A stretch of 64,000 bases of DNA, taken from an uncultured Alphaproteobacteria bacterium. GTDB taxonomy: Bacteria > Pseudomonadota > Alphaproteobacteria > Rhizobiales > Beijerinckiaceae. The notes beneath the pieces were generated by a model. It was not told where the DNA came from. It did not search any database and saw only the letters and a program-made list of their open reading frames with translations. A program made the position numbers and the translations under genes. Positions 26,705 through 55,400 of this stretch are shown piece after piece; position 1 is the first letter of the stretch, and each line of letters begins with the position of its first letter. Location of the stretch: the NCBI GenBank assembly GCA_963713695.1, contig CAVQMU010000002.1, forward strand, positions 564,041 through 628,040. Direction: 5' to 3'.

Positions 26705-26719
26705 ACGCCCAGGCGCTGC

Positions 26720-26962
26720 TCAGCCCCGCTTTCGTCGAAACTCCCGGCGGCGGGGAAGCAGGCTGAACTCTCCGCAGTAGCGGCACAGCAGCGCGGGGTC
26801 GCCGGTCATCGAGCCCGGATCGAAGGCGATCAGAATTGTGTAGTCGCAATGGCCGCAGGCATAGTCGTCGCTCCCCGGCAAATTCAATCTGTCGGCGCCG
26901 ATCAGCTTCACCTTGGCGTCAGCGTCTACCTGGCTGATCGGCAACATTTTTATCCGCGCCAT
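26720..26962 (-). CDS. small (80 aa) CxxC…CxxC zinc-ribbon-like hypothetical protein
   Basis: …DYACGHCDYTILIAFDPGSMTGDPALLCRYCGEF… Lies divergent from the MCP-PilZ gene. Coding status is uncertain. Confidence 0.4.
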   Translation of the reverse strand: MARIKMLPISQVDADAKVKLIGADRLNLPGSDDYACGHCDYTILIAFDPGSMTGDPALLCRYCGEFSLLPRRREFRRKRG

Positions 26963-27250
26963 ACCTAAACGCCTCCGCTTTCCTTAACTCAGGTTCCTTA
27001 CGATCGGCGGAAGGGGAAGTTTCGAACATGCACTGTTGAGACGCGAATGGGGGAGCCATGCCTGCGATGTTGTTGGCGCATCGTAATATAAGCTTACCTA
27101 ACGTAAGCATGTATCAATAGAAATAAGGTATGTTGCGCGATAAGACAACAAAATAATGTAAAAATACCCGTAAATTCATAATTCGTTAACCAATACTTGT
27201 TAAAAACATGGTGTAATTTTGCTTTTGACCACTTTGTCGGACATTCAGGC

Positions 27251-29242: not shown

Positions 29243-29412
29243 TGTTGCGCAGCTCGCCCCGGGGCGAAGGGCGGAGCGACGGGACCGCGCGGGCGGGGCG
29301 GTTTCATCTGACTGTCATATATAGCTTTTAGACCTTCCCTAAGGTCATGACGCGGTCCGGCCATCTGACCTCGCCAATCGTGATCGCAATCGCGCAGACT
29401 TCAGGGATTCTC

Positions 29413-30878: not shown

Positions 30879-30898
30879 TACTGAAGACCTCGCCAACA

Positions 30899-30926
30899 AA
30901 AGGCCGCCGTGGGGCGGCTTTTTCTT
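30899..30926 (+). terminator. rho-independent terminator after the PEP-CTERM gene
   Basis: AGGCCGCC-GTGG-GGCGGCTT followed by TTTTCTTTATTT. Confidence 0.55.
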
Positions 30927-31084
30927 TATTTGGCTTGCAAGCAACGTTTCCGCGTAAATCGCTTCAACGTTTGTCAAGGATAGCCAATAAAAATCCGGCT
31001 TCTAGCTTGGACGCCGCCTTGCCGTCCCGGCGCCCCTGCGGCAGACTGTCGAGGCAATTGCGCATTATCCGGGATTGACTGCAA

Positions 31085-32917
31085 ATGGATTATATTCTTG
31101 TCGCGGCCCTGCTGATTGCCGCCGCCCTGCTGGCGCCGCGTTTTCTTCGCCCCGATCTGCCTAAACGCGACCTTGTCGTCTCGGGATTGCGGGTCATTCT
31201 CGGCCTTGGCGCGCTCGTCGCCATACTCGCGACCAGCGTCGTCACCGTTCCCGCCGACCGCGTCGGCATCGTCAAAAAGCTTTACGGCTTTTCGAACCTG
31301 CCGGAGGGCCGCCTGATCGCCGTCAACGGCGAGACGGGCTACCAGGCGCCGATCATTCCGCCGGGCACATGGCGCATTTCGCTCCTGTTCAACCTGTTCA
31401 ACAGCATCGAAACCGTGCCGCTTGTGGTGGTGCCCAACGGTTTTTACGGGCGCATCGTGTCGCGCGACGGAGCGCCGCTGGGCGATAGCCAGATCATGGC
31501 CGACGCATGGCCCGAAGCGGAGTTCTCCAATTTTCTCAATGCCGAGTATTTCCTGACCCATGGGGGCCAGAAAGGCTTGCAGCTCAGCGTGCTGAAGCCC
31601 GGCGCCTATGCCGTCAATCTCGCCTTGTTTGAAGTGCGCGTCGGCTATCGTCCCAATGACCGCGACATTACCAAGTCGACCGACGATGTCTTCGACATTC
31701 ACGGCATGCATCAGGAGTCGACCCCGCTTACGACCGAGATCACTCATGTTCCCGCGGGATCGGTTGGCGTGGTGCGGTCCTCGGTGGAGGAGAAAGGCAA
31801 GAATTGCCAGCCGATCAAGGCCAAGGCAGATTCTGACGGCCTCGTCGCCGAACTCGTGCCGCCGGGCTGCAAGGGGGTCTGGAACGCCTCGCTGCCGCCA
31901 AACGATTATTATCTCAATCGTGACGCCAACGAGGTGGTGATCGTCTCGACGCGCGTCACGACGATCGAGTTCAAAGGCGGCTATGACCGACGCTACATCG
32001 ACCTGAAGGTGGATGGAAAGGGCGACTTCGCCCAGACCGAACACACGGCGCATTTTCTTGATATCGGCGACGACCGGGCGATCAACACCAAGGTCGAGGG
32101 ATGGGAAATCCCCCAGGAACTGCGAGCCGTCGTGCAGATATCGCCGGAGCACGCGCCCATCGTTGTCGCCGCCGTCGGCGGCCAGACGGAAGTCGACCAG
32201 CGCATCGTCATCCCCTCGATTCGCAGTCACGTGCGCAATGTCTTCGGCGGCTTGGTGACGGTGGCCGGCGATCCCGCCAAGGGCGAGCCGGCGACAGTCA
32301 CCCGCCCGACGCGCGTGCTCGACACGGTGGAGCAGCGTCCGGCGCTGGAAGAATCGATCCTCAAGCTGGCGCGCGAGGACGGGCGACGCGCGGGCGTCGA
32401 CATCAAGGAAATACGCCTGGGCGAAAGCGCCATTCCGCCCGAACTGCTGCTGGCGCGCCAGCGAGAACAGCTGGCGATCCAGCTGAAGGCCGCCTTCATC
32501 CAGGAACAGGCGGCGCAGACGCAGAGGCAACAGACGGAACAGGCGCGCGCCACGGCCGAACAGCAGTCTGAACTGGTCAAGGCGCAGATCGCCGTGCAGA
32601 CGGCCAGGCTTTTGCAGGAGCGGCGGCAGGCCGAAGGCCATGGCGAAAGGCTGTTCCTCGAAGAGCAGGCGGCGGGCCAGACCGCGCAGGCCAATGTGCT
32701 TGGAAAGGACAATGTGCTGAAGTTGCAGATGTTCAACCGGTCGCTCGAGTTGCTTGGCGCGCACCCGGAGCTGGTGTCCAATCTTGTCCTGCCGAAGTTT
32801 TATGTCAGCGGCGGCGGCGGGTTGGAAGGCGCTGCGGCCATCTTCGGCGGGTTGATGTCGGGAACGGCGCAGAACGGCGCGAGCGCGACGCAGGACAAGC
32901 CGGCGCAAGCAAGGTAA
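31085..32917 (+). CDS. SPFH/band-7 (flotillin-like) membrane protein with a long C-terminal coiled coil
   Basis: N-terminal TM, SPFH core, then a Q/A/E-rich coiled coil (…LAIQLKAAFIQEQAAQTQRQQTEQARATAEQQSELVKAQIAVQTARLLQE…). Confidence 0.8.
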   Translation: MDYILVAALLIAAALLAPRFLRPDLPKRDLVVSGLRVILGLGALVAILATSVVTVPADRVGIVKKLYGFSNLPEGRLIAVNGETGYQAPIIPPGTWRISLLFNLFNSIETVPLVVVPNGFYGRIVSRDGAPLGDSQIMADAWPEAEFSNFLNAEYFLTHGGQKGLQLSVLKPGAYAVNLALFEVRVGYRPNDRDITKSTDDVFDIHGMHQESTPLTTEITHVPAGSVGVVRSSVEEKGKNCQPIKAKADSDGLVAELVPPGCKGVWNASLPPNDYYLNRDANEVVIVSTRVTTIEFKGGYDRRYIDLKVDGKGDFAQTEHTAHFLDIGDDRAINTKVEGWEIPQELRAVVQISPEHAPIVVAAVGGQTEVDQRIVIPSIRSHVRNVFGGLVTVAGDPAKGEPATVTRPTRVLDTVEQRPALEESILKLAREDGRRAGVDIKEIRLGESAIPPELLLARQREQLAIQLKAAFIQEQAAQTQRQQTEQARATAEQQSELVKAQIAVQTARLLQERRQAEGHGERLFLEEQAAGQTAQANVLGKDNVLKLQMFNRSLELLGAHPELVSNLVLPKFYVSGGGGLEGAAAIFGGLMSGTAQNGASATQDKPAQAR

Positions 32918-32928
32918 GCGCGTTCGCC

Positions 32929-33343
32929 TTATCGCGCTTCCATGGCCGCCAGCATGGCCGCCATTTTCTCATGGACGACCTGGATAGCCTTGAGCGGACG
33001 CAGCATGACCTTGAAACGGTCGATGCGTCCGTCCGGGTTCCAGCCGATGATATCCACGCCATTGACCTCGATCGAACCGATCCGCGTCGAAAACTCCAGC
33101 ACGGCGGAGGTTTCCCCGATCCATTCGCCGATATAGCGAAATTCGTCGCCCGACAGGACATGCAGCGCCGCATCGAGATAGAGTTCTCGTTTTGGCGCGG
33201 CCGACCTGCGGCGTATGCACGACGGGCGAATGGAAGGTCACGTCCTCGGCCAGCAGATCGTCGAGCGCCGCGGCATCGCGCGTTGCGACGATCTCATGCC
33301 AACGTTGCAAGGCGGGAGGTCGGTGTCGGTTTGCATCGCTCAT
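32929..33343 (-). pseudogene. NTF2/SnoaL-like small protein with an apparent 1-nt frameshift in an AAAA run (about 33188-33191 on the minus-strand sense)
   Basis: N-part MSDANRHRPPALQRWHEIVATRDAAALDDLLAEDVTFHSPVVHTPQ (frame A) continues as …KRELYLDAALHVLSGDEFRYIGEWIGETSAVLEFSTRIGSIEVNGVDIIGWNPDGRIDRFKVMLRPLKAIQVVHEKMAAMLAAMEAR in frame B. Removing one A from GCCAAAACGAG restores a single 138-aa ORF. Confidence 0.6.
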
Positions 33344-33547
33344 GGGCGGCCCTCGACTGGGGGATTGGCAGGCCGGATCGGACGGCCGGGCGTCCCTTGA
33401 ATACAGAGGTTGACTCATTGGCGCTAGAAGCGAGGCCCTCAAAGAAAAGGCGATTATATTTTTTACAAGCAAGGGACATCTTTGCCAAAGAAAAAGCCTC
33501 GGCGCGAACGCCGAGGCTTTGCTTGTCTTGACCGGGAAGTCCCGTCG

Positions 33548-39755: not shown

Positions 39756-40907
39756 ATGATGGCTCTGATTGGCAATTACTTTGGGCGCGGGCCAACGATG
39801 GTGCGGCAAAAGGTTTCGACCAAATCTTCGACCTCGATCGAGGCGTTTACCGCAGCCAATCCGGAGCTGGAGGAAGAAGAGCCGGCAGTTGAAATCATGA
39901 CGCCGCCGAGGTTGGCGAATGACAGTCAGGACGACGAGCTTTCCTCGTTGATGAACGCCGTCAAGGAACAGGCGATCTTTCTCAAATGCGAGCAGTCGAA
40001 GCTCATTTCCGACTGGCAGATCGGACTGGAGCTGCTGACCAGCAGAATGGCGACATTGCAGCCGCTTTTGACGCACGCGCTGAAGTCCAACGTCGAACGC
40101 GAGCAGGTCAACAGCCGTCTGGCGGCATCCGAATCCGATCTCAAGCGCCGTCTGGCGGAGTCCGAACGCGAACTCATGCATTACCGCCCCGCGGCCCTGC
40201 AAGCGGAAGACGAACTGCGTAATGTCCGGGCCCAACTTTCCGATAACCAGCGGCACGCGATAGCTCTCGAGGCGGAGTTCGCCAAGTCGCAGGGCGCGAT
40301 CAACGATCTTTTTCAGAAAGTCACCACCGCGGAGGCCTCGCGCCAGCGGATCATCGAAGAAAATGCGGCCTATTCCCAGAAGATGCGTGAGCACGACGCC
40401 GCCCTGCAGACATTTGTGCGAGAGGCGGCGCAACTCAAATGCGACTTTGTCTCCGCCAACAGCGATGTGGAAAGGCTTGAAGCCGAGTTGGGAACGCTCA
40501 CCAGGAAATATGCCGGCGAATGCGAGGAGCACAGCCGCGTCAAGACCGCGCTGGAAACGATGCAGGCTCAGTTCGCGCAATTGCAGAAAGACAGCCTGGC
40601 GCGGGTCAAGGAGGCCGAAGAGCGGGAACGGCGCGCCGCTGAAGGGCTCTCCGTTCGAGAAAAACAATATTACGATCTCGACGTTCGACAGTCAGCCCTG
40701 GTGTCGAAGGTGGATTTCCTCACACGGACGAACCAGCGTCAGCGCGAGGACTTGCGGCGCCATATCGATCACATCGGCAACCTGGAAGCCTCCAACCGGC
40801 AACTCCTCGATGCGCTTGCGCGGAACGCCAGCGGAACGGAGGCGGTCGCACAGGATGGGATGGTTCAAGCGCCGCCAAAATTATGGGCGGTGAATGAGGC
40901 CTCCTGA
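39756..40907 (+). CDS. long coiled-coil hypothetical protein (~380 aa)
   Basis: Almost entirely heptad-like, Q/E/R/A/L-rich sequence; no recognisable enzymatic motif. Preceded by an AT-richer region with a TTGACA…TATAAA-like promoter (about 39564-39600) and small hairpins. Confidence 0.55.
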   Translation: MMALIGNYFGRGPTMVRQKVSTKSSTSIEAFTAANPELEEEEPAVEIMTPPRLANDSQDDELSSLMNAVKEQAIFLKCEQSKLISDWQIGLELLTSRMATLQPLLTHALKSNVEREQVNSRLAASESDLKRRLAESERELMHYRPAALQAEDELRNVRAQLSDNQRHAIALEAEFAKSQGAINDLFQKVTTAEASRQRIIEENAAYSQKMREHDAALQTFVREAAQLKCDFVSANSDVERLEAELGTLTRKYAGECEEHSRVKTALETMQAQFAQLQKDSLARVKEAEERERRAAEGLSVREKQYYDLDVRQSALVSKVDFLTRTNQRQREDLRRHIDHIGNLEASNRQLLDALARNASGTEAVAQDGMVQAPPKLWAVNEAS

Positions 40908-41096
40908 GCAGGAGATCGTCTGCAGGCGGCTCCGACAAGGGACGAATTCGCCGACCGTGCGACACGCCGAACCTCAGGGGACGGTCGTTGAATTCGTCCG
41001 CGCCTCCAATTTCTGGCGGCGCATGTCGGAACAATAGCGCCGACGCCGCGCCGCTCGGCCGGCATTAAGCGGTAGGCGACGGATCAAAGGGTGTAA

Positions 41097-41303
41097 TCAC
41101 CGTATGATCGAGGGCGCGCCCGCGGGCATGGGCGTCGGCGGAATGAGCAATTCGTTGACCGTCCACACGAGCAGCAGGACGATCAGCACAGTCACCAGCA
41201 AGCCCGAGAACCCGCGCGTTCCCCAGCCGCGCGCGCGTCCGTAGTATCCTCCGCCTCCGCCGAGCAGCAGCAGCACCAAAAGCAAGAGAACGAACAGAAA
41301 CAT
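41097..41303 (-). CDS. small two-TM membrane protein, DUF3309-like (Gly/Tyr/Trp-rich loop)
   Basis: MFLFVLLLLVLLLLGGGGGYYGRARGWGTRGFSGLLVTVLIVLLLVW…. Confidence 0.5.
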   Translation of the reverse strand: MFLFVLLLLVLLLLGGGGGYYGRARGWGTRGFSGLLVTVLIVLLLVWTVNELLIPPTPMPAGAPSIIR

Positions 41304-41480
41304 GGCGGCATGGCTCCGGATCTTTCCGTTTCCAACGCGCGGTCGCCGAAATCGATCCGTGACCGGCGGACGACCCGTAAAGAGCGCTGATCCGCAGGCT
41401 CAGTCCCAACCAAATCAGGTCGAGCCGCCGAAAGTTTTCGTTTCGAAGCCTTTGCAGGCGAAGCGGATACCGGCATGCTT

Positions 41481-41693
41481 TTACCACCAGCGCAGCAAGC
41501 CGCCCGTCGCCCAGACCAGCATGACGGCGACGAGGCTCAGGACGAGCACGATCAGCACCCGTTTCCCTCCCGGTCCCTGTCTCGCCGTGTCGGCGGTCAA
41601 CACTTGAGGATGCCGTTCCCTGTAATGCGGCGGCGGTTTGATCGCGTCGCGCTCGATATTGCGAAAACCGTCCCTGTCGTCGCTACTGGCCAT
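41481..41693 (-). CDS. small hypothetical protein with a C-terminal TM anchor (70 aa)
   Basis: MASSDDRDGFRNIERDAIKPPPHYRERHPQV…GKRVLIVLVLSLVAVMLVWATGGLLRWW. Overlaps the upstream small ORF by 11 nt (operon-like). Confidence 0.4.
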   Translation of the reverse strand: MASSDDRDGFRNIERDAIKPPPHYRERHPQVLTADTARQGPGGKRVLIVLVLSLVAVMLVWATGGLLRWW

Positions 41694-41862
41694 GCGTTTT
41701 CCTCCCGGCCGAATCCGCAGGCGATTCCTGTCCGCGCGGACGCTTCTCCAGGGCCTCCGCCTCGCGATCCTCCATCTCTCCCGCATAAGGCTGCTTCGCT
41801 TCGCGCTGGGCGCGTTTTCGCGCGAGCTCCTTGAGTTCGCCAGGGGTGTTCGTGCGGCGCAT
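41683..41862 (-). CDS. small basic hypothetical protein (59 aa)
   Basis: MRRTNTPGELKELARKRAQREAKQPYAGEMEDREAEALEKRPRGQ… Lies immediately downstream of a perfect EcfG-type promoter motif. Confidence 0.4.
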   Translation of the reverse strand: MRRTNTPGELKELARKRAQREAKQPYAGEMEDREAEALEKRPRGQESPADSAGRKTHGQ

Positions 41863-41891
41863 TGCTCGTCTCCGATCTGCGAGACGCCAGC

Positions 41892-41916
41892 AACGCGCCG
41901 TCGCTGGAGATGTTCC
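41892..41916 (-). promoter_or_regulatory. sigma-EcfG (general stress response)-type promoter GGAAC-N16-CGTT
   Basis: Minus-strand reading AGGAACATCTCCAGCGACGGCGCGTTGC, 32 nt upstream of the ATG at 41862. Confidence 0.45.
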
Positions 41917-41924
41917 TGAAACCG

Positions 41925-41950
41925 GGAACAAATAGGAACAGTCGCGGTTT
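41925..41950 (+). promoter_or_regulatory. sigma-EcfG-type promoter-like motif GGAAC-N17-GTTT (divergent from the preceding one)
   Basis: GGAACAAATAGGAACAGTCGCGGTTT, 26 nt upstream of the ATG at 41976. Confidence 0.35.
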
Positions 41951-41975
41951 GTCGCGGCAATCGGAGGAGGCAATC

Positions 41976-42278
41976 ATGCCGCGCGGCGACAAGTCCAAAT
42001 ATACCGACAAGCAGGTCAGGAAGGCGCAGGACATCGAGGCGAGTTACGAAAGCCGCGGCGTGCCTGAGACGGAAGCCGAGCGCCGCGCCTGGGCGACTGT
42101 CAACAAGGACGACGGCGGCGGCAAGAAGCCTGGCGGCTCCGGGCGCGGCGCGGAGACTGGCCATCCGGCTGCCCATCGCGGCGGCGCATTGGGCGGCGAG
42201 GCCTCAGCGGGACGGCCAGCGCCAGAGCGTGCCGCTTCCGCGCGAAAAGCCGCCGCGACGCGTCGCAAAAAAGCATGA
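41976..42278 (+). CDS. small hydrophilic stress-protein-like protein (100 aa, Lys/Gly-rich C-terminus)
   Basis: MPRGDKSKYTDKQVRKAQDIEASYESRGVPETEAERRAWATVNKDDGGGKKPGGSGRG… Pattern recalled as typical of small stress-induced conserved hypothetical proteins of Rhizobiales. Confidence 0.55.
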   Translation: MPRGDKSKYTDKQVRKAQDIEASYESRGVPETEAERRAWATVNKDDGGGKKPGGSGRGAETGHPAAHRGGALGGEASAGRPAPERAASARKAAATRRKKA

Positions 42279-42325
42279 AGCGTGAGCAGAACGCATTGTA
42301 AACAATAAAAATTCCGCACTGTGAG

Positions 42326-42351
42326 GCAACCTTCGAAGCGCGTGCGACGTT
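42326..42351 (+). promoter_or_regulatory. EcfG-like promoter motif GCAAC-N17-CGTT upstream of the DUF4142 gene
   Basis: GCAACCTTCGAAGCGCGTGCGACGTT; one mismatch in the -35 element. Confidence 0.3.
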
Positions 42352-42405
42352 GGCTCCACTCTTCTTTCCTGGCGGCCGCGCGCCGCAGAAGCTTTGGAGC
42401 TACGC

Positions 42406-42945
42406 ATGAAAAGAATTATTCTCGCGACAACTTGCGCGCTTTTGACCTTTCCCGCCTTCGCCGAAACGGCGAGCGAGAAGCTCGGCGTCAACTCCGCCCT
42501 GGGCATAGCGCCGACCACGGCGGACTTCGTCAACGAGGCCGTCACGGGCAATCTGTTCGAGATCCGATCCAGCCAATTGGCCCAGAAAGACGGGGACGCT
42601 GCGACCAAGGCCTTCGCAGACCAGATGGTCGCGGACCATGAGAAAATGGGTAACGAACTCAAGGAGCTGATCCAGTCGAAAAAGATCGACGTGACGCTTC
42701 CCAGCGAACCGACCTCGAAACAGCAGTCGGAATTGAGCAAGCTCGAAAAACTCAAGAGCGCCGATTTCGACAAGCAATATCGGGCCGATCAGTATTCCGG
42801 TCACAAGGACGTCGTGTCGTTGTTCCAGCGCTACGCCAACAGCGGCGACAATGCAGATCTCAAGCAATGGGCGCAGAAGGAAGAGCCGATGCTCGAGCAT
42901 CATCTGCAGATGGCGCGGGACCTCGACAAACAGGCTTCCCGATAG
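42406..42945 (+). CDS. DUF4142-domain periplasmic protein
   Basis: Signal peptide MKRIILATTCALLTFPAFA; …DFVNEAVTGNLFEIRSSQLA…ADQMVADHEKMGNEL…. Confidence 0.8.
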   Translation: MKRIILATTCALLTFPAFAETASEKLGVNSALGIAPTTADFVNEAVTGNLFEIRSSQLAQKDGDAATKAFADQMVADHEKMGNELKELIQSKKIDVTLPSEPTSKQQSELSKLEKLKSADFDKQYRADQYSGHKDVVSLFQRYANSGDNADLKQWAQKEEPMLEHHLQMARDLDKQASR

Positions 42946-42974
42946 GTCTAATTCGCTCACACGAAAAACCAAAT

Positions 42975-42999
42975 GGCGACCTGTCGAGGTCGCCTTTTT
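42975..42999 (+). terminator. rho-independent terminator after the DUF4142 gene
   Basis: GGCGACC-TGTCGA-GGTCGCC followed by TTTTT. Confidence 0.55.
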
Positions 43000-43034
43000 G
43001 TCGCCCGGCGCTACATGCGTCCAGTCGCCGGCGC

Positions 43035-43186
43035 TACATGCGTCCTGTTGCAATGAGCACGATGACAATGATCAAGACCAGGCCCAGCCCGCCGCTCGGG
43101 TAATAGCCCCAACTCGAACTGTGTGGCCACGTCGGCAAGGCGCCGAGCAGCAACAAGACAAGAATGATAAGAATTATGGTGGACAT
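43035..43186 (-). CDS. DUF3309-family small membrane protein (50 aa; below the ORF-track length cut-off)
   Basis: Minus-strand translation MSTIILIILVLLLLGALPTWPHSSSWGYYPSGGLGLVLIIVIVLIATGRM*. Canonical DUF3309 pattern (TM, PTWP…W-GY-PSGG, TM). Confidence 0.7.
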
Positions 43187-43212
43187 GTTTCGCTCCCCTC
43201 GAATGCAACGCC

Positions 43213-43240
43213 AAAAGCCGCGCGTTCAAGAACGCGCGGC
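43213..43240 (-). terminator. rho-independent terminator (minus strand) after the 72-aa hypothetical gene
   Basis: Minus-strand reading GCCGCGCGTTC-TT-GAACGCGCGGC followed by TTTT. Confidence 0.55.
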
Positions 43241-43444
43241 TTTGTCTTCGTTTTCCTCGACGCAGACCTTGAGACAGGGAAACCGGTCGAGGATGCGCGA
43301 CGCCTCGGCTTCCGCTTCCTCGCGATTGTCGAACCCCCGCTTGGGCTGGTGGTCGACGACAAGGATGTAGCGCGCCGCCTCTTTTGGCGTTTGACGTCGC
43401 GCCGGCGCTTGGAGGCGCGTCGTCGCCTGATCCTGGAAACGCAT
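43226..43444 (-). CDS. hypothetical small protein (72 aa)
   Basis: …ARYILVVDHQPKRGFDNREEAEAEASRILDRFPCLKVCVEENE…; protein-like composition with a terminator hairpin at its 3' end. Confidence 0.45.
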   Translation of the reverse strand: MRFQDQATTRLQAPARRQTPKEAARYILVVDHQPKRGFDNREEAEAEASRILDRFPCLKVCVEENEDKAARS

Positions 43445-43451
43445 GTCCGCC

Positions 43452-43532
43452 TCAGTGATGGAAGAACAGCGCGAGCAATATGATGATGGGTATTGGCACG
43501 CCCAGCAGCCAGAGCAGGATTCCTCTTCCCAT
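43452..43532 (-). CDS. 26-aa hydrophobic micro-protein with a strong Shine-Dalgarno
   Basis: AAAGGAGGCTATC-ATG then MGRGILLWLLGVPIPIIILLALFFHH*. Lies immediately upstream of the 72-aa gene. Confidence 0.45.
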   Translation of the reverse strand: MGRGILLWLLGVPIPIIILLALFFHH

Positions 43533-43663
43533 GATAGCCTCCTTTGTTGTGATGCAGCCGGTCATCGAGGAATAGGCCATCGCGCCGGGCCGAGCCGGAC
43601 GCCGTCGAAACTAGCTCGTTCGATGAAGGCGGTCGCGATGCAAAAGCAAATCGGGACCGGGAC

Positions 43664-44548
43664 CTAACGCTGCATCGCGCGATCGGGTTCCGCCTGGTTT
43701 GCCTGGCCGGCGAGCCCCATTCCGGATCTGGTCGCGCCTTGGCGTTTCAGCTCGTTCGTCACGACCTCGAAAAGCACGAGATTGGCGATGCCGAACGCAG
43801 TGGAGATCGGCACGTCCGCGGCGTCGCGCCCGTGCCCCATCACGACGCGGCCGATGCGGGGCTCATTGTGGCGCGCGTCGAACGTGAACCAGCGACCATC
43901 AAGGAAAACCTCGAACCATGCGCTGAAATCCATCGGCGCGGGATCGGGGGGAACGCCGATATCGCCGAGATATCCTGTGCAATAACGTGCGGGCATGTTC
44001 ATGCAGCGGCAGAGCGCGATTGCGAGGTGAGCGAAGTCGCGACAGACGCCGATGCCCTCATGCATCGAGTCGCTGGCGCAACGCGTGGGGCGCGCGTCGG
44101 GATAGCTGAAGCGGATCTTTTCGTGCACGAAATCGCAGATCGCCTGCACGCGGCGGTAGCCGCCGGCGATATTGCCGAAATTCGCCCAGGCGAAATCCTG
44201 GAGCTTGTCGCTGTCGCAATAGCGGCTCGATGTCAGGTAGATCAGCACGTCGTCGGGAAGCCGGGCGACGGGCGTGAGGTCTTCGTCAGGCGGCGTTTCC
44301 TCCCGCTCGCCGGAATCGGCGATGACGAAATGATTTTTGAACGCGACACGGCCGGGCGGCGCAACAAGCCGCGTGACGCGATTTCCAAACACATCGAGAT
44401 AGGCGGACATTGGCAGGATCGGGTCCGACAGGATTATGTCAGGCGATCGTAAGTCGGCCTCGCGCGACGGATGGATATTGAGCTGCAACAGCATCGGCGT
44501 TTCCGCCGGACAGTCGAATGCGATATGAAAACCGGCTTCAATCAGCAT
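43664..44548 (-). CDS. transglutaminase-like superfamily protein (Bact_transglu_N plus TGase core)
   Basis: …GIGVCRDFAHLAIALCRCMNMPARYCTGY… with conserved Cys/His/Asp core residues. Confidence 0.8.
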   Translation of the reverse strand: MLIEAGFHIAFDCPAETPMLLQLNIHPSREADLRSPDIILSDPILPMSAYLDVFGNRVTRLVAPPGRVAFKNHFVIADSGEREETPPDEDLTPVARLPDDVLIYLTSSRYCDSDKLQDFAWANFGNIAGGYRRVQAICDFVHEKIRFSYPDARPTRCASDSMHEGIGVCRDFAHLAIALCRCMNMPARYCTGYLGDIGVPPDPAPMDFSAWFEVFLDGRWFTFDARHNEPRIGRVVMGHGRDAADVPISTAFGIANLVLFEVVTNELKRQGATRSGMGLAGQANQAEPDRAMQR

Positions 44549-44645
44549 GAAATCAATCTCGGACGAGGGCGACCGGCGTTCTGGCCGGACGCGATTTTCT
44601 GGAACCCGATCCGAGCAAGTTCAGACAGGCCGATGATAACGACTT

Positions 44646-45554
44646 TCAGCGCGTCCCGGTTCCCGCGGCGTCGCTTTCCGAGAGTTGGCGGACGAGGACG
44701 GTGACATCCATCCTGTCCTCCTCCGAAGACTTGCCGTAGTAATAACCGTGCAGCGGAATGGCCTGCTGCGCTTCGCGGGCGACCGCGACGCGGATGAGAT
44801 CGCGATTGCCGACGATGCCATTGGTCGGATCGAATTCGACCCAGCCCGAGCCTGGCAGATAGATCTGCACCCAGGCGTGGGTCGAGCCGCCGCCAAGATA
44901 GGCGTGAGCGGCATCGCGGTCGGGCACGTAGAGATAGCCGGAGACAAAACGCGCCGCAAAGCCCAGCGCCCGCGCCGCCTCCATCATCAGGGTCGCGAAG
45001 TCGCGACAGGAACCGCGCCGCCGCGCCAGGGTCAGGAGCGGAGACTGCGTGCCCTGCTCGATGCGCCGTTCGTAATAGAGCCCTTCCTTGATCGCATAAT
45101 TGAGGGTCATGAGCAGCTCGGCCGTCTCGGTGTCGCGTCCCTGATGCAGGAAGCGACGGACCCATTTGTCGAGTTCGCCATGGGGATCGGCATAATGCCG
45201 TTCGATCGAACGGGCGAGGTCGGGCATTTCCTCTCCGTCATAGGCGAAGGGATAGAGTTTGGCCCGTTCGTCGAGCAGAAACTCGCTGCCTTCAAACGGC
45301 GTGTGCTCGACAAGGATGCGGCTTTCGACGCGCAATTGTCGCGTCGCGTCGGAAAAATCCGCAACGGCGACGCAATTGTCGAAGACGTCGTGGATCCAGC
45401 GCAGGCGGCGCGGCGTCGGATCGATGTCGAGCCGCGCGTCGAGCAGGCGCTGGTCGTTGCTGTCGCGTGGGCGCAACATCATCCGATGCTCGCCGAGGCG
45501 GACGGGCGCAGCATAGCTGTAGCTGGTGATGTGATTGACCGAAAAGACGGGCAT
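44646..45554 (-). CDS. transglutaminase-like superfamily protein (second, paralogous)
   Basis: MPVFSVNHITSYSY… (Bact_transglu_N) and …RRGSCRDFATLMMEAARALGFAARFVSGY…HAWVQIYLPGSGWVEFDPTN… True start at 45554; the listed ORF to 46238 is an extension. Confidence 0.8.
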   Translation of the reverse strand: MPVFSVNHITSYSYAAPVRLGEHRMMLRPRDSNDQRLLDARLDIDPTPRRLRWIHDVFDNCVAVADFSDATRQLRVESRILVEHTPFEGSEFLLDERAKLYPFAYDGEEMPDLARSIERHYADPHGELDKWVRRFLHQGRDTETAELLMTLNYAIKEGLYYERRIEQGTQSPLLTLARRRGSCRDFATLMMEAARALGFAARFVSGYLYVPDRDAAHAYLGGGSTHAWVQIYLPGSGWVEFDPTNGIVGNRDLIRVAVAREAQQAIPLHGYYYGKSSEEDRMDVTVLVRQLSESDAAGTGTR

Positions 45555-46731: not shown

Positions 46732-47192
46732 CATGACGCGCGACAGCACCAATGGCGGAGTCGTTAAGGAAAAATTTACCATTGCGAGTAGAATCAGATG
46801 TGACAATTTGCAGAGGTAATAATAACCAAATCAGCAGGTTGAATATGGCGGTGGGCGACAATCTCGAGAAGATCCGGATTCAATGGATCCACCTGCAATT
46901 CGCCCGCGCCGACCTGAGATACGATCAGACGAATTTGCAAAAAGCCTGCCCGCTGAGCCTGAATTGCGAGGCCTTGAACGCGGCGCCCATTACGGGAAAT
47001 CCGAGAAGCATATTCCCTTGCGTGGATTGCCCCATGCGGCCGCAGGCCACGGCCTTGCAATAGGGCGGCCGCCTTGCCGGAACATGGCTCGACGTCGTGC
47101 GTTGTCAGGACAAGCGAAGGACAAGTCGGACGCCCGTTACGAGGAGGCCATCCGCAGTCATCGCATCCTCGCAGAATCAAGGGCGCACCCAC

Positions 47193-47417
47193 ATGAAGAC
47201 CACTTCGGGAATGTTGGCGCTTGTCATTCTGCTTCCGCTGTCGGCCGCGCCGGTCATGGCGAAAGGCTGCATCAAGGGCGCGATTGTCGGAGGCGTTGCG
47301 GGACATATGGCCGGGCACGGCAAGATGGGTGCGGCGGCTGGCTGCGCGATCGGTCATCACGAAGCCAACAAACCGCAGCCGGCGCCCCAGAACGGATCTG
47401 AGAATCAAGAGAAATGA
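47193..47417 (+). CDS. glycine-zipper (YMGG-like) small secreted or outer-membrane protein
   Basis: Signal peptide MKTTSGMLALVILLPLSAAPVMA; GAIVGGVAGHMAGHGKMGAAAGCAIG glycine zipper. Confidence 0.7.
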   Translation: MKTTSGMLALVILLPLSAAPVMAKGCIKGAIVGGVAGHMAGHGKMGAAAGCAIGHHEANKPQPAPQNGSENQEK

Positions 47418-47444: not shown

Positions 47445-47473
47445 GGGGCGCGAATAATTCGGCGCCCTTTTTT
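47445..47473. terminator. bidirectional hairpin terminator between the glycine-zipper gene and the convergent giant repeat-protein gene
   Basis: GGGCGCGAA-TAA-TTCGGCGCCC followed by TTTTTT. Confidence 0.55.
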
Positions 47474-47478
47474 GTCGA

Positions 47479-50400
47479 TTAAACGAACTTGAATTGCGAG
47501 GCGACCAGGCTCGACATCTGAACATTCGTCAGGGTGACGCTATCGGACGCGTCGAGCGAGATCATAGTATTCGCGCCGGACTGATGCATGTGGCTCGAAC
47601 TCGAAAGCACGGACCAACTGGAAAAATCCGATTTGCTGAACTGGATGGTGTCAGACGCCACAAAGTCATTGACGGCGTTCACGCCGATGGCCGGCTGAAA
47701 CACGAGCGCGTCCGACGTTCCAAACAGCGACAGCGAGTTTGAGCCGTACAGGTCCAAAGTGTCGCCGGCGCCGGTCACCGAGGCCTGGGCGCTGTTCACG
47801 TAGATCGTTCCGTTCGATGCGCCGACCGAATCCCAGGCGCCGCCCGTATTGTAGAGGGCCAGCGCGTCGCTGGAATTGCCGTCCAGCGTGATCGTATCGC
47901 CGCCGCCGGAGACCGAGGTCTGCGCGCCATTGATGTAGACGGCGCTGTTCGAACCGATGACCGAGTCCCAGTTTCCGCCTGTTCCGTAAAGGCTCACGGC
48001 AATGCCCGAACCGCTGGCGAAATAGACGGCGTCGCCGCCGCCCTGGATCGCCGTCTGCGCGCTGTTCAGATAGATTGCGCCCTTCGATCCATAGACCCAG
48101 TCCCAGCTTCCACCGGTGTTGTAGAGGCTTGCGGCATTGCCAGTGCCGCCGGCGAAATAAGCCTTTTCGCCGCCGCCATAGATCGCGGCCTGCGCGCCGG
48201 TCAGATAGATGGTTCCGCCGCTTGCATAGACAGTGTCCCAAATCCCCTGGCTGTAGTAGAGGCTCAAATCGTTATTTGAACCGCTGCTGAAGGCGATGGC
48301 GTCGCCGCCGCCCTGGACCGCAGCCTGTGCGCTGTTCAGATAGACCGATCCGTCGGACCCATAGACCCAGTCCCAGTTTCCGCCGGTATTGTAGAGCCCC
48401 GCAGCATTGCCGGAGCCGCTTGAGAAATTGATTGTTTCGCCCCCGCCTTGGACCGCGGCCTGCGCGCTGTTCAGATAGACGGTTCCATTTGTTGCGTAGA
48501 CCCAGTCCCAATTGCCGCCGGTGGTGTAGAGGCTCGCCGCATTGCTCGCGCCGGAGACGAAAACGATGACGTCGCCGCCGCCCTGGATCGCCGCCTGCGC
48601 GCCGTTCAGATAGACATCGCCATTCGAGCCATAGACCCAGTCCCAGTTTCCGCCGGTGTTGTAGAGGCTGGCTGCATCGCCCGAACCGCCGGCCAGATAG
48701 ACGGTGTCGCCGCCGCCATACACTGTGGCTTGGGCGCCATCGAGTTTGACGACGCCGCCGGAGCCGTTCACCTGATCCCAGTCGCCAGAGGTATTGTTGA
48801 GGTTCGCAAGGTCTCCCGAGGCGTTGGGGAAGTTCACGGTCACTCCGCCGCCGTTATCGGTGACGGCCGCGCCTGCCGCGTAGAGATTGATATCGGTTCC
48901 GCCCTGGCCGTCGGAGGAAAGGATGAAGTTCAGGCCTGCGTAATTGACGGTCGGATCGAGATTCACCTCGTAGGTCGCGCCATTGGCGACAATTTCGAGG
49001 ACATTTCCGGCGAGCAAGGTCGCGGAGCCGATTCCGTTGTACGCCACGCCGCGGAGATCGATCGTTTGCTGCACGGCCAGGGTGAAGCCAGCGACGACGT
49101 TCGTCGGCATGGCCGTCCCGTCGATCTGCAGCGTGGTCAGGCCGCCCCTGAAGGTGACGTCGCCGCTACCCTCGGACTGCGGCGTGGCAAGCTCCAGCGT
49201 GCCCAGCTCGATCGTCACGCCGCCGGTGAAAGTGTTTTGCGCGTCGAGCGTCAGCACGCCGGCGCCGTCGAGGGTCAGGCTTCCAGAGCCGGTCTGGCCG
49301 CTGGCGTCCTTTGACCCGGTCATGTCGGTTATGACATCGGAAATGGTTTCCGTCTGGCCGGCCGCGGGGGCGAAGACGATATTCTGATTGCCCTGGAGGA
49401 AAATGCCGGAGCCATAGGCCTGGCCATTGCCGCTGCCAGTGTTGCCCAGTCCGGCTGTGACCGAGCCTCCGGATAAGGAGCCGCCGTCAACAGTCAGCGC
49501 CGCGCCGCCCTGGACAAAAATACCGCCGCCCGCGCCGAGGCCGCCGCCGCCGCCTTTGCCCTCGCCGGAAGAGCCGCCGCCGAAGCCGCCAGAGACGGTT
49601 CCGGACGATGTGGCGCTGGCGCCGGCGCCGCCTCCGAAGCCGCCCACGCCGCCGCTGTTCCAAAAACTTCCGCCGCCGCCGCCGCCGAAACCTCCAGCGC
49701 CGCCGCCGACGGAGGAGCCGTTGACATAGCCGCCTAGCGTGCCCCCGCCGCCGCCGCCGAAGCCGCCAGCGCCTCCACCCGTGGCTCCATTGGCGCCGTC
49801 AACGCCACCGCCGCCCCCGCTGCCGCCCCCGCCGGCGCCCCCAGCGCCTCCCGAGGCGCCTCCCGCGGTATAACCGGATCCGCCTCCTGACGCTCCCGCC
49901 ACGATACCGGCCGCGGAGGGCGATCCACCGGATGACGCGTTCGCGTCAATGCCTCCGCCTCCGCTATCTGCGCCCCCATTGCCGCCCAAACCGCCGCCGC
50001 CGCCAAAATTGGCGATTCCGCTTCCAACGCCGCCTCCGGCTCCGCCGACGGCAGAATCGGCGCTGAAGACGACGCTGTCGAGCGTCACATTGGCCGGCGC
50101 AGCGCCGTCGGCGGAATCATTCGCCACGAACAATCCGCCGCCAAGGCCAGCGCCGCCGCCTCCGCTTGCTCCATTTGTCGAATTATCGCCGGAACCGCCC
50201 GCGCCGCCGACCGCCGCCGCGTTCGAAGATCGTCAAATTTTCAATGGTGACATTGCCTGAATAGACAAAAAATCCGCGAAAGGCGCCGGCGCCATTCAGG
50301 GTCGCGCCTGCGCCATTGATGGTCAGCGTGTCCCCGCCCTTGAGATTGATGGCTTCGAGATCGGCGGCTTCCGTCAGCGTCGCCCCGGCGCTGAGGGTAA

Positions 50401-51865
50401 GCGAGTAATGCACGCCCGAACTGTTTCCTGCTTGCGAGGCGAGATCGACCGCCTTGATGTCGGCGCTGAGCGCCGCGGCGGACGAAACGTTGGCGATGGA
50501 ATCCGATGTCGAAGCGCTCAGCGTCACCGCGATATTGTTCGTTGCCGGCGTGTCGCCGCCGGCGTCGGTCGTCGTCACGCTGATCGTGTCGGTTCCGGAA
50601 TAAAACAGGTTGGCCTGATAGGTCGCCGTCGCCAGCGCCGCGTCGATCGCCGCGACGGTCCCGGCGATCTTCATGTCTCCCGTGCCCGCGCCCGTGATCG
50701 TGGCCGCCCCGGCGGCCCCTACGTTGAAGGAACCGTCTGCGGCCTTGAGTTCGGTCGTCAGCTGCGTCTCCTGAAACAGCGCGCCGAGCGTCGAACTGAC
50801 GGAAACCGTTGGGGCGCCCAGCGACATCGCGCTGTTCCAGCCGCCGCTCAGCGAGGTCGTGGAAAGCATTTGCGAAATCGTGTTGACGAAGGAATAGCCG
50901 AGGACGTTCATCTCCTCGAGATCGGCCTGCGAAATGGCGCCTACCTTGCCGTCATAGGCTGTGCCATAGGAATCGCCTTTGAGGGAATCGGTCCAGTCCG
51001 CAACATCCTCGCCCTGCGCCACCTGCGCGGGCGTATCATAGGGGAGGGTGACGGTCGTGCCGTTATAAGAGAAATAGGAATAGGCGTTGGAGTTGTAATT
51101 GGCGACGAAGGGCTCGTCGAGGGCGCCGGCCGCCGAACCGGGCGCGGCATTGGTCGACCCGCCGGCCGCCGTATAATGGTAAAAATCGAGCAGCGTGTAC
51201 TGGTTGTCCACGCCGAGTTCATCGGTACGGCCGAGAACCTCCGAGATTTCGTGTTCCAACAGGCCAACCGCGTCGTAAGTTCCCCCGGCGATGCTCGATT
51301 GCGACCAGCTGTAACTGAGGGCGCTGCTCAAGCCGACATAGCCGTCAACCGAGACGCCATATGTGGAAAGCCCCAAAACCTTTGCTTCGGCGGTATTGAC
51401 GACAAACGTGCCGGCTCCATTGGTCGGATCGGTCGCGGGCAGGAGAGCCGCAGCGGTCGTCTGAACTGAGGATGTCGTGTCGGTCGCCTGTGCCGCCGCG
51501 AGAAGCTGTTGATATGAATATGTTCCAGTATTGAAGTCGCTCTCGCCGGCGTCCGACGCGTCGACGGGCTGTCCTTCGATTTCGCCATAACTGAAGGTTA
51601 TATTGACGGTGATCGGGTTGGCGATGAGTTGGTCGTAATATTTTACCGCGGCAGCGACGGCAGCCTCGTATTGCGCCTGCAACGTCGGGCTGAGGGAAGT
51701 GACGCTCGAATCGTAGGTGGCGTTGATGATCATGCGGGCGTTTCCGTTGGACGGCGGGAAGGCTTGGCCGGGCGGGACAGGGCTTTTCCGAAAAATAGAG
51801 TGAAGCGACGGCGACGAAGGCGAATAATCAGCAGGATGACCAGCGACAGGCTTGGCTGGAATCAC
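47479..51865 (-). CDS. giant (~1,450 aa) secreted glycine-rich repeat protein with PATR-type (autotransporter-associated beta-strand) repeats and ~9 tandem 33-aa C-terminal repeats; interrupted by a 1-nt frameshift near 50200-50225
   Basis: ORF 50183..51865 (N-terminal domain; probable ATG at 51733, MIINATYD…) and ORF 47479..50133 are the same gene in different frames. Shifting by one base after …ENLTIFE gives …AAAVGGAGGSGDNSTNGASGGGGAGLGGGLFVANDS… PATR motif …GSGSLTLDGAGVLTLDAQNTFTGGVTIELGTLELAT… Repeats SLYNTGGNWDWVYGSNGDVYLNGAQAAIQGGGD occur 9 times. No signal peptide. C-terminus …LVASQFKFV. Confidence 0.7.
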
Positions 51866-52473: not shown

Positions 52474-55400
52474 ATGGATATCGAGGCGTGGCTAAGGGGT
52501 TTGGGCCTTGGCCAGTATGTCGCGACGTTTCGCGATTTTGCGGTTGACGCCGACATATTGCCGGACTTGAGCGACGCCGATCTCGAAAAGCTTGGTCTTC
52601 CGCTCGGCCACCGCAAACGCCTGCTCAAAGCGATCGCCGGCCTCGACGTGGCAAGCGCGGCGCCCGCCTCGACCGTCTCGATGTCGACGACTGGGGCCGC
52701 CGCCGACGCCGAGCGCCGGAATATCGCCGTGCTGTTTTGCGATCTCGTCGGTTCGACCGGCGTCGCCGCGCGTCTCGATGCCGAGGAATGGCGCGACATA
52801 GAGAACGCCTATCTGGATGCGGCGAGCAAGGCGGTGACCGATTTCGGCGGGCGGGTCGCCAAGAAACTCGGCGACGGTTTGATGGCGCTGTTCGGCTATC
52901 CGACGGCGCAGGAGAATGACGCCGAGCGCGCGGCGCGCGCCGCGTTGGCGATTCAGCGCGATCTCGCCAAACTGAATGCGGCCAATGCGGATGCGGGCAG
53001 GCCCCGGCTAGCAGTGCGCATCGGCATTGCCTCGGGCCTTGTGGTGGTCGACGCCGCGGGTGAGATATTTGGCGATGCGCCAAATATTGCAGCGCGCGTG
53101 CAAGCGGTGGCCGAGCCAGGATCTGTTCTGACGACAGCCGCCATGCAGTGCCAATTGGCAGGCCTGTTTGTCGTGGAGGACCTTGGCGCGCACGAACTCA
53201 AAGGCGTCGCCGGCCCGATGGCGCTCTATCGGCTGGTGCGCCAAAGCGGTGCGGGACGGCGGCTTGCGGCGCGGGCGTTGACGCCTATGGTCGGGCGCGA
53301 GGACGAGATGGCCGCGCTCGCCCGACGCTGGGCGCTCGCGCGACGCGGCGAAGGGCAATTGCTGCTCATTGTCGGGGAGCCCGGTCTCGGCAAATCGCGC
53401 CTGTTGGAGGAGTTTCGCCGCACGCTGAGCGGAACGCCCCACACGTGGGTTGAATGGAACTGCTCGCAACTTTTGCAAAACACAGCGCTGCATCCAGTCG
53501 TCGAATGGGGACGCCAGCGTTTTAGCGCCGACGATTCTCCCGAGCGAAGGCTTGCCGATCTTGAGGCGACGCTGACGCTGCTCAATCTCGATCCCTCCGA
53601 GCATCTGCCGCTGCTCGCGCCCCTCGTCGACATTCCCTTGCCGTCGGAACGGGCGCTGGAGGGGTTGTCGCCTGCCGAATTCCGGCGCAAACAGCTCGGC
53701 GCGCTGATGGCTTGGGTGATGGCGGGAGCGCGGGCGCAGCCGGTCGTTCTCGCCTGCGAGGACCTGCACTGGTCGGATCCGACCACGCTTGAGCTCTTGC
53801 GCGGTCTTGCCGAACGCGGCGGCGATGCCCCGCTGCTCATCCTCGCCACGGCACGGCCGGAGTTCCGGTCGTCGTGGAGCATCCGCGCGCATCATGGCGC
53901 GCTGGGGTTGGCCCCGCTTGACGCGGAAGAAGTCAAACGAATGGTCGGGCAAATCGCCGCCCGCCATGCATTGTCGCGTCAAACCATCGACGGCGTGGCC
54001 GCGCGCGCCGGAGGCGTGCCGCTGTTTGTCGAGGAGGTGACGCGGCTGCTGCTGGAGCGCCATGACACGGGCGACATACAGGCGATACCGCCGACCTTGC
54101 AGCAATCCCTGGCGGCGCGGCTCGACCGGTTGGGGCCGGCGCGCGAGATTGCGCAAGTCGCCGCGGTGATCGGGCGCGCGTTTTCTTACGCGCTGCTGCG
54201 GGCGGTGGCGTGCGCTGGAGATGCTGAGCTCTGCGAGGGTTTGGAGCGCCTGACGGAGGCGGGCCTCATCCACGTCCATGGCCAGCCGCCGGACGCGGAT
54301 TATCGCTTCAAACATGCGCTGATCCGCGATGCGGCCTATGAAGGTCTTCTGAAAAGCCGTCGTCAGGCGCTGCACGCTCGCATCGCCGAGAACTTGCGCG
54401 ACCGTTTTCCCGAGCGCGCCGAAGCCGAACCGGAGTTCCTCGCCGGCCACTTCACGCAGGGGGGGCTTTTGGAGCCTGCGATCGACGCCTGGACCAAGGC
54501 AGGCGAACAAGCCGCTCGGCGCTCGGCAATCACCGAGGCGGTCGCACATTTCGAAAAGGCGATCAATATCGCCGACGCCCTGCCTGATCGCCGTGAGCGA
54601 AGGCTTGACCGGCTGCGCTTGCAGGTCGCTTACGGCAACGTGCTCATTCCAGCGCGTGGACATGGCGCGGTGGAGACGACCGCGGCGTTTGTCCGAGCGA
54701 GGGAGCTCATCACTGAGAATACGGAATTGTCGGAGACGTTCTCGATCTATTATGGGTTGTGGACTGGCCATTTTGTTCGCGGCGAACTTGAGCCGATGAA
54801 GACGACTGCGGCAGAACTCCTGCTCGCAACCGAGGCAGGGAGCGAATCCGCTGCCGCCGGCATCGCACATCGAATGTCTGGCGTCACATACTGGTCCGCC
54901 GGGGAATTTTCACTCGCCAGAACCTTCCTCGATCGCGCTCTCACCATGATCGGGCCAGAGATTGACAAGGTGTCGATGCTTGCCTTCGGACAAGAGCCGG
55001 GCGTCAGCGTCCTGGCTTATCTTTCACTGACCAATTGGCCGCTTGGAAACGTCGCGCGTGCTATCGCTCGCGCTGACGAAGCTGTCGAACGCGCAACAGT
55101 TAGCGGACATGTTGCGACGATCGCTTACTCAGTTTGGCATCGGCTCCTTTTGGACCTGATGCAGCGGCGCGACGATCTCGCAATTGACGGTGCGAAGGCT
55201 TTAATCGAGATCAGCGAAAAGTACGAACTGCGACAGTGGCGAATAGCAGGCATCTTCTTTGATGGGTGGACACGATGGCGCCGGGACTCCCAAGTGGACG
55301 GCATCGAAGCGATGAAACGCGGTGTGGCCCTTGTCCGCGAGCAATCCGCTCACAATACCTCGCCTATCTATGCAATCCTTCACGCGGAGGCGCTTTGCGA

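Follow-up and report, generated by a model that had tools for sequence, protein, structure and literature searches.

A chromosomal cluster of very small genes behind predicted EcfG-type general stress promoters in a member of the Beijerinckiaceae

The analysis concerns 64,000 nt of the genome of an uncultured soil alphaproteobacterium of the family Beijerinckiaceae (assembly GCA_963713695.1, contig CAVQMU010000002.1, positions 564,041 to 628,040), referred to as the window. Within it a stretch of ~3.5 kb, the island, is made up of eight very small genes of 26–179 aa, nearly all preceded by the promoter signature of the sigma factor EcfG. From sequence comparison we consider it likely that the region holds a chromosomal gene cluster belonging to the general stress response (GSR) of Alphaproteobacteria, under predicted EcfG promoters. 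In the GSR, stress-sensing HWE/HisKA2 kinases phosphorylate PhyR, and phospho-PhyR captures the anti-sigma factor NepR; the freed EcfG then guides RNA polymerase to promoters of the form GGAAC-N16/17-CGTT (PMC4814048, PMC3892343, PMC4551977). An initial annotation of this DNA had already read the motifs as EcfG promoters, and that reading is supported here by their position, by their statistics and by comparison with other genomes.

The genes of the island and their right-hand neighbour are given below in order of position (L082 is a contig from the JGI collection that contains the right half of the island).

41097–41303 (−): g68, 68 aa, a two-helix membrane protein with a weak match to DUF3309 (Pfam PF11752)
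41481–41693 (−): g70, 70 aa, with a C-terminal membrane helix and its own Shine–Dalgarno (SD) sequence GGGAGG
41683–41862 (−): g59, 59 aa, highly charged, SD sequence GGAG, the first gene of the g59–g70 pair
41976–42278 (+): g100, 100 aa, basic and Gly-rich (KG-rich), of a large conserved family
42406–42945 (+): DUF4142 protein (Pfam PF13628), 179 aa, periplasmic, its N-terminus being a signal peptide
43034–43186 (−): g50, 50 aa, a canonical DUF3309 protein with two membrane helices (Pfam PF11752)
43226–43444 (−): g72, 72 aa, hydrophilic, with an orthologue in L082
43452–43532 (−): g26, a hydrophobic peptide of 26 aa, MGRGILLWLLGVPIPIIILLALFFHH, with a perfect SD sequence AGGAGG, leading the g26–g72(–g50) operon
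43664–44548 (−): transglutaminase-like protein, 294 aa, the right-hand neighbour (Pfam Transglut_core, E = 1.3e-18), with an orthologue in L082

All eight small genes are real: each has an SD sequence 6–12 nt ahead of its start, a coding-type GC content at third codon positions (0.70–0.81), and either conservation in another genome or a match to a Pfam family. The same evidence bears out the initial count of at least eight micro-genes within 2.5 kb. The products had been described as mostly membrane or secreted, and this holds for five of the eight: hydrophobic helices are present in g68 (two segments), g50, g70 and g26, and the DUF4142 protein has a signal peptide, whereas g59, g72 and g100 are hydrophilic. 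The open reading frames (ORFs) are tightly packed. Those of g59 and g70 overlap by 11 nt, and g72 starts 7 nt past g26, the stop codon of which lies inside the SD sequence of g72, so that the two are translationally coupled. Public gene calls on the source contig include seven of the eight genes and miss g26. Of the two genes initially thought to be unannotated, g50 and g26, the description therefore applies only to g26, since the other seven are called there; g50 is additionally called on a Logan contig.

Six candidate promoters are placed along 3.4 kb, as follows.

41334–41358 (−): EcfG-like variant GGATC-N16-CGTT, 30 nt before the ATG of g68
41892–41916 (−): perfect EcfG-type GGAAC-N16-CGTT, 29 nt before the ATG of g59
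41925–41949 (+): divergent EcfG-type GGAAC-N16-GGTT, 26 nt before the ATG of g100
42326–42351 (+): EcfG-like variant GCAAC-N17-CGTT, 54 nt before the DUF4142 gene
43666–43691 (−): perfect EcfG-type GGAAC-N17-CGTT, 133 nt before g26
44638–44663 (−): perfect EcfG-type GGAAC-N17-CGTT, 89 nt before the 294-aa transglutaminase-like gene

Three are perfect and three have one mismatch, all with GGAAC- and CGTT-type boxes separated by 16–17 nt. Each is correctly oriented, at 26, 29, 30, 54, 89 or 133 nt from a start that is provided with an SD sequence. The −35 boxes of the divergent g59 and g100 promoters are 8 bp apart, and the g26 promoter lies in the last nine codons plus the stop codon of the transglutaminase-like gene. 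The three motifs of the initial annotation (before g59, g100 and the DUF4142 gene) are located where it had placed them, what it wrote as GGAAC-N17-GTTT being equivalent to GGAAC-N16-GGTT; those before g68, the g26 operon and the transglutaminase-like gene are additional to it. GGAAC-N16-CGTT is the published EcfG1 motif of Rhizobium etli (PMC3892343). In Sphingomonas melonis Fr1 the promoters shown by experiment to depend on EcfG include the forms GGATC...CGTT, GCAAC...CGTT, GGAAC...GGTT and ...ATT; the motifs cluster within ~100 nt of the start, and hypothetical proteins or small secreted ones are frequent among the targets (PMC6599016).

The motif is over-represented in the window, with five perfect matches to GGAAC-N16/17-CGTT observed against 1.36 expected. 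All five are correctly oriented and precede a start codon by 29–133 nt. A relaxed set of patterns gives 15 matches in the window, of which five fall within the island (4% of its length) and seven between 41.3 and 47.1 kb. The five in the island are all correctly oriented, 26–133 nt ahead of start codons, and for the three component classes of pattern the enrichment in the island has binomial P values of 0.015, 0.0065 and 0.0005.

An association is also found at the level of the gene families. In 2.75 Mb of alphaproteobacterial DNA the background frequency of GGAAC-N16/17-NGTT is 1.8e-5 per nt, or 0.0027 per upstream region of 150 nt. This motif is located 25–59 nt upstream of seven out of eight plasmid-borne DUF4142 genes from seven genera (binomial P ~1e-17); those with the motif are from Neorhizobium, Agrobacterium vitis, Bradyrhizobium, Rhizobium, Ensifer, Sinorhizobium and Sphingobium, and the copy from Tistrella has none. 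It also precedes six of eight genes of the g100 family, the copy in the window included (binomial P ~1e-14), and the Rhodoblastus member (L085) has GGAAC-N16-GGTT, identical to the form in the window. Taken over these families, unrelated copies preceded by this type of promoter occur in Rhizobium, Neorhizobium, Agrobacterium, Bradyrhizobium, Ensifer, Sinorhizobium, Sphingobium, Rhodoblastus and Pseudochrobactrum. Upstream of g26, four of five loci have a motif, including GCAAC-N16-CGTT in L093 and GGAAC-N17-TGTT in L094.

The orthologous locus L082 provides a footprint of three of the promoters. Besides a truncated 3′ end of g100 it carries DUF4142 (79% identical), DUF3309, g72 and g26, the two transglutaminase-like genes and the beginning of the AI-2E transporter gene. 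Upstream of the DUF4142 gene the intergenic region has diverged and contains indels, yet GAGGCAACC...GACGTTGGCTC is kept, with the spacer shortened from 17 to 16 nt (GCAAC-N16-CGTT). The g26 promoter is kept as GGAAC-N17-CGTT, and that of the transglutaminase-like gene is found in the same place as GGAAC-N16-CGTT, its spacer again reduced from 17 to 16 nt. Thus the −35 and −10 boxes of the DUF4142, g26 and transglutaminase promoters are kept while spacers change.

On this basis stress would lead to phosphorylation of PhyR and sequestration of NepR, and free EcfG would initiate at the promoters of the island, so that its five or six transcription units would be expressed together. The units would be g59–g70 (with a possible extension into g68), g68 by itself behind its variant promoter, g100, DUF4142, g26–g72–g50 and the transglutaminase-like gene, the last of which is probably in the same regulon. 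The products would be mostly destined for the envelope, with four integral membrane proteins (g68, g70, g50 and g26) and one periplasmic helical protein (DUF4142), and the remaining three (g59, g72 and g100) would be small hydrophilic cytoplasmic proteins. We infer EcfG as the sigma factor, induction of transcription by stress, and protection of the envelope by the encoded proteins. The initial description as a compact module has to be taken loosely; the genes are organized as separate transcription units, and these continue rightward through the transglutaminase-like gene to a small gene at 47193–47417. The provision of genes with their own terminators had been overstated, as one clear intrinsic terminator is present together with one further hairpin:

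42975–42994 (both strands): intrinsic terminator acting in both directions, where the DUF4142 and g50 genes converge, with an 8-bp GC-rich stem and T runs on both strands
43214–43243 (−): 13-bp hairpin over the stop codon of g72, upstream of g50, possibly a partial terminator or processing site

Several observations weigh against the assignment to the GSR. Motifs of the GGAAC...GTT type are also used by other groups of extracytoplasmic function (ECF) sigma factors in other phyla, and three of the six promoters have one mismatch to the strict consensus. Genes for PhyR, NepR and EcfG were not found within the window, which otherwise carries dnaG–rpoD, carA, lgt, acs and purK. Two of the perfect motifs are embedded in the 3′-terminal part of the preceding coding sequence, and their conservation could partly reflect coding constraint. 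This is countered by the protein ends encoded directly before the boxes, which are not conserved, such as that of the transglutaminase-like protein at the g26 promoter in L082. In S. melonis, EcfG does not regulate the transglutaminase-like gene. Lastly, no convincing separate promoter was seen for g50. A candidate, GGAAA-N17-CGTT at 43231–43256, overlapping the hairpin at 43214–43243, was dropped because it is not kept in L082, and for that reason g50 is probably transcribed by read-through from the g26 promoter past this hairpin.

Real ECF-type promoters might be read by another ECF sigma factor, either a non-canonical paralogue of EcfG or a member of a group with an overlapping motif, in which case the signal governing the island would be narrower than that of the GSR. 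Multiple paralogues of EcfG, differing in part in the promoters that they prefer, occur in many Alphaproteobacteria (PMC3892343, PMC4814048), and in Sinorhizobium meliloti 67% of the targets of RpoE6 overlap the RpoE2 regulon (PMC6180224). The −10 boxes do vary, both here and in the homologous loci (CGTT, GGTT, TGTT and CATT). However, the strict form GGAAC-N16/17-CGTT is the published consensus of EcfG1 and RpoE2, and the same families carry the motif across Rhizobiales and Sphingomonadales, for which reason the universally conserved EcfG fits better than an accessory sigma factor, and we regard the latter as unlikely. It is harder still to believe that the motifs are coincidences in GC-rich DNA and that the small genes use ordinary sigma-70 promoters. 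The mismatches in three of the motifs would agree with this, one of 100 shuffles of the window did reach five perfect matches, and relaxed matches at 5611, 16454 and 34966 are inside genes and look like chance. Yet no sigma-70-like promoter was found in 40800–43800, every motif of the island is correctly oriented and placed, its boxes are conserved in L082, and the association at the family level has P ~1e-14 to 1e-17. Chance is rejected on these statistics together with the conservation, as hardly credible.

A mobile or addiction-type cassette would explain the region in terms of a ParE-like plasmid-stabilization protein (g100) and a peptide resembling a type I toxin (g26). The database name of the g100 family, its frequent occurrence on rhizobial plasmids and the nature of g26, a very hydrophobic peptide of 26 aa behind a long conserved leader, all fit such a cassette. 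So do the edges of the homologous loci, since synteny with the closest metagenome-assembled genome (MAG), L002, extends from ~20 kb to 40873 and ends exactly at the left edge of the island, and in L082 g100 is truncated by the end of an unrelated ORF. The protein itself has a basic, Gly-rich sequence and a helical hairpin, and neither Pfam (ParE included) nor NCBIfam nor the folds of the PDB gave a match to it. It is flanked by g59 and the DUF4142 gene, no antitoxin partner being present, and the contexts of its family are varied and likewise lack an antitoxin. The GC content of the island is that of its surroundings, and no integrase or repeat boundaries were seen there. Furthermore, in all its loci g26 shows translational coupling to the genes that follow it, unlike stand-alone type I toxins, and its leader matches no antisense or leader family in Rfam. 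A cassette of this kind is very improbable.

The near-invariant membrane peptide of 25–26 aa is the least ordinary part of the cluster. The peptide MGRGILLWLLGVPIPIIILLAL(F/I)WH occurs as the tail of 13 over-extended ORF predictions, the upstream parts of which are mutually unrelated. It is present in L082 and in L092–L094, and 20 JGI contigs have a called product identical to the 26 aa of g26. Between the window and L082 23 of the 26 residues are identical, with six synonymous and three non-synonymous codon changes. An alternative start giving 42 aa was rejected, as in L082 this reading loses its frame or meets a stop codon. In L094 (985–2255) g26 is followed by a membrane protein of 303 aa and then by a g68-like gene of 60 aa, which ties two families of the island together elsewhere. 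In L092 (3021–3990) it is followed by a multi-pass membrane protein of ~300 aa, split into 65 + 220 aa. This suggests a recurrent partnership of peptide and membrane protein, in which g26 may act as a small subunit or partner. The 133-nt leader of g26 (43533–43665, minus strand) is ~85–88% identical to that of L082, and is conserved to the same extent as the coding parts. We do not claim an RNA element here, as no Rfam family is matched and the fold z-score of −0.1 is not that of an unusually structured sequence. A more far-reaching proposal is that g26 is a translated, undescribed and widely conserved membrane micropeptide of the GSR, acting as partner or regulator of co-transcribed envelope proteins (the ~300-aa protein elsewhere, g72 and the DUF3309 protein here), and that with g59/g70 and the g100 family it would form a set of new core members of the GSR; we advance this tentatively, and rate it as possible rather than probable.

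The sequence of g100 has 7993 database matches, and among the 120 listed nearly all are 75–88% identical over the full length. The homologues come from Rhodoblastus, Methylobacterium, Methylocystis, Labrys and Caulobacteraceae, and are named 'plasmid stabilization (system) protein (ParE)' by JGI and NCBI. No Pfam family is matched by g100 at E ≤ 1, and thus neither KGG nor ParE, and there is no match in NCBIfam; the KGG repeat model, to which its initial label as a KG-rich stress-like protein would correspond, is therefore not matched in either database. Comparison with the PDB gave no match of sequence or fold. Relationships to ChaB, KGG or ParE proteins were accordingly rejected. An AlphaFold2 model has a helical hairpin at residues 11–46 (pLDDT 80–86) and a disordered Gly-rich middle. 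In composition this Gly-rich basic middle is akin to the hydrophilic stress proteins of the KGG type (KGG/YciG). The ParE product name looks like a propagated annotation error without domain evidence, and the conserved EcfG-type promoter points to a role of the family in stress rather than in plasmid stabilization.

Pfam confirms the two DUF3309-like genes and the DUF4142 gene of the initial annotation. The match of g50 to DUF3309 extends over model positions 1–50 of 50 (84.2 bits, E = 6.5e-24), and the protein is 92% identical to that of L082, with 17 synonymous and four non-synonymous codon changes. That of g68 is weak, at 27.1 bits against a gathering cut-off of 22.3 (model positions 3–47). 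Unlike g50, g68 has no conserved WP....WGYYPSGG loop, and it is closer to the 60-aa gene in the g26-led operon of L094 (45% identical); for these reasons it may represent a sister family of DUF3309. The DUF4142 protein matches PF13628 over model positions 2–138 of 138 (145.8 bits against a cut-off of 27, E = 1.3e-42), with weak Pfam matches to the ferritin-like families DUF305 and DUF2383. Its gene has GCAAC in place of the usual EcfG −35 box GGAAC. A search of the available literature gave no paper linking DUF4142, by that name, to EcfG, nor one for COG3652. The strongly EcfG-dependent gene 1281 of S. melonis, 'Predicted outer membrane protein', may belong to the DUF4142 family, to judge by the COG name. 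A tie to the RpoE2 regulon through S. meliloti 1021 was abandoned, as none of eight near-identical matches on Sinorhizobium plasmids could be linked to a 1021 locus tag.

The family of g70 has 34 representative homologues, mostly of 64–75 aa, with an N-terminal motif E.DNI.PPPHY...DTARQGP.G.RVL followed by the membrane helix. In the metagenomic locus L104, g70 is 52% identical to a 71-aa gene, and g59 is 44% identical over 50 aa to a 62-aa gene that overlaps this g70 homologue by 4 nt. Since L104 keeps the overlapping pair, g59 and g70 are conserved as two genes. In Logan contig L095 (run ERR11563597) one C is missing and there is one C>T change at 41690–41700, which fuses g59 and g70 into an ORF of 126 aa. 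This could be a strain or assembly variant, and the indel could be in either sequence. As an ancestral state the fusion was rejected, because the homologues are stand-alone proteins of ~70 aa and L104 keeps two genes. The orthologue of g72 in L082 is 73% identical; no match to g72 was found in Pfam, in NCBIfam or among plasmids, and a concatenated query of g59, g70, g72 and g26 gave only g26-type matches. In tblastn searches against plasmids g59, g70, g72, g50 and g26 had no match, with masking of low-complexity sequence as the likely cause for the hydrophobic ones.

At L104 (2040–5100) Ku and DUF4142 genes (the latter 63% identical) are divergent from the 62-aa/71-aa pair, and downstream is a PfpI gene followed by genes of 82, 63, 85 and 86 aa. 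The motifs there are GGAAC-N16-GGTT before DUF4142, -CATT ~27 nt before the 62-aa gene of the pair and -GATT before PfpI, and the 82-aa gene is preceded by a perfect GGAAC-N17-CGTT. Non-homologous end joining is reported to be stress-inducible in S. meliloti (PMC6379672), and the L104 cluster contains Ku. With L104 as a second cluster of micro-genes, genes of the GSR seem to cluster repeatedly.

The host is an uncultured member of the Hyphomicrobiales, its purK being 83% and 79% identical to the genes of two MAGs and 62–65% identical to those of Rhodoblastus, Methylocella and Beijerinckiaceae. In favour of the assignment to the GSR, EcfG is described as a core, class-specific component of that response (PMC3892343). 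The island is present in none of the 80 loci from a genome-collection search with purK, and a search of the same kind with DUF4142 gave no match. The region ~26000–33500 of the window (a helix–turn–helix regulator, a protein with methyl-accepting chemotaxis and PilZ domains, and unnamed ORFs) has no counterpart in L002, although the two are syntenic otherwise; either this genome has gained the block by insertion or the relative has lost it by deletion.

Other motifs lie elsewhere in the window. A perfect GGAAC-N16-CGTT at 14595–14619 (+) is located 104 nt before a gene for a secreted SH3_3/SH3_4 protein (ATG at 14724; region 14595–15550). Another perfect GGAAC-N16-CGTT, at 47079–47103 (+), is 89 nt before a gene for a Gly/His-rich protein of 74 aa with a signal peptide (47193–47417), 3.6 kb to the right of the island. 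This gene is followed by a hairpin and T6 terminator at ~47445–47475, and its product matches neither Pfam nor NCBIfam; it is probably another micro-gene of the GSR. GTAAC-N17-CGTT occurs 130 nt before an ORF of 73 aa with a signal peptide (58081–58302; region 57925–58302, plus strand), a weak candidate for a further EcfG-type unit.

The right-hand part of the window has other features. Two Gly-rich, highly repetitive ORFs of 884 and 560 aa (47479–51865, minus strand) contain units like LYNTGGNWDWVYGS and have no Pfam match; they may encode a secreted repeat protein or adhesin. A protein of 1096 aa (52474–55764, plus strand) has SAM, adenylate/guanylate cyclase and AAA_16 ATPase domains, and near it is a Crp/cNMP-binding regulator (57025–57735, plus strand). 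A Mutator-family (IS256-like) transposase (59346–60572, minus strand) adjoins a phage-type integrase (60687–61625, plus strand) in a stretch of lower GC content.

What is gained is a well-supported in silico assignment of eight uncharacterized small genes and two neighbours to the GSR. The g26 peptide, the g59/g70 pair and the 100-aa family have either no curated model or a misleading name, and they have EcfG-type promoters across genera, which makes them sensible candidates for work on stress survival in culturable relatives, for instance under desiccation, osmotic or oxidative stress. The picture of how the GSR works is unchanged, and regulons with many small proteins of unknown function had been documented before. 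The g26 peptide may be compared with the stress-induced small membrane proteins of enterobacteria, those of under 50 aa having reportedly been catalogued by Hemm, Storz and colleagues. Like them it has a single helix, a length below the limits of gene callers, a strong SD sequence and a stress-type promoter; it differs in leading an operon, and has no sequence relationship to them.

Overexpression of RpoE2 in S. meliloti induces 202 genes, 150 of them without a predicted function, and RpoE2-dependent intergenic regions could be correlated with five ORFs that were newly identified (PMC3616915). Compared with the known regulons (EcfG of S. melonis, RpoE2 of S. meliloti, EcfG1/RpoE4 of R. etli and EcfG of Methylobacterium extorquens), the cluster has the same promoter architecture with the same tolerated variants, motifs that are likewise concentrated within ~100 nt of starts, and a preponderance of small unknown proteins. 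The neighbours in the homologous loci are classic GSR genes, for a general stress protein, ferritin-like proteins, Hsp20, PRC-barrel proteins, Ku/LigD and PfpI. The cluster differs from these regulons in belonging to an uncultured organism, in its high density of promoters and in the inclusion of a transglutaminase-like gene. The assignment is well supported, and the cluster is an ordinary example of the kind of regulon described in Sphingomonas, Sinorhizobium and Rhizobium.

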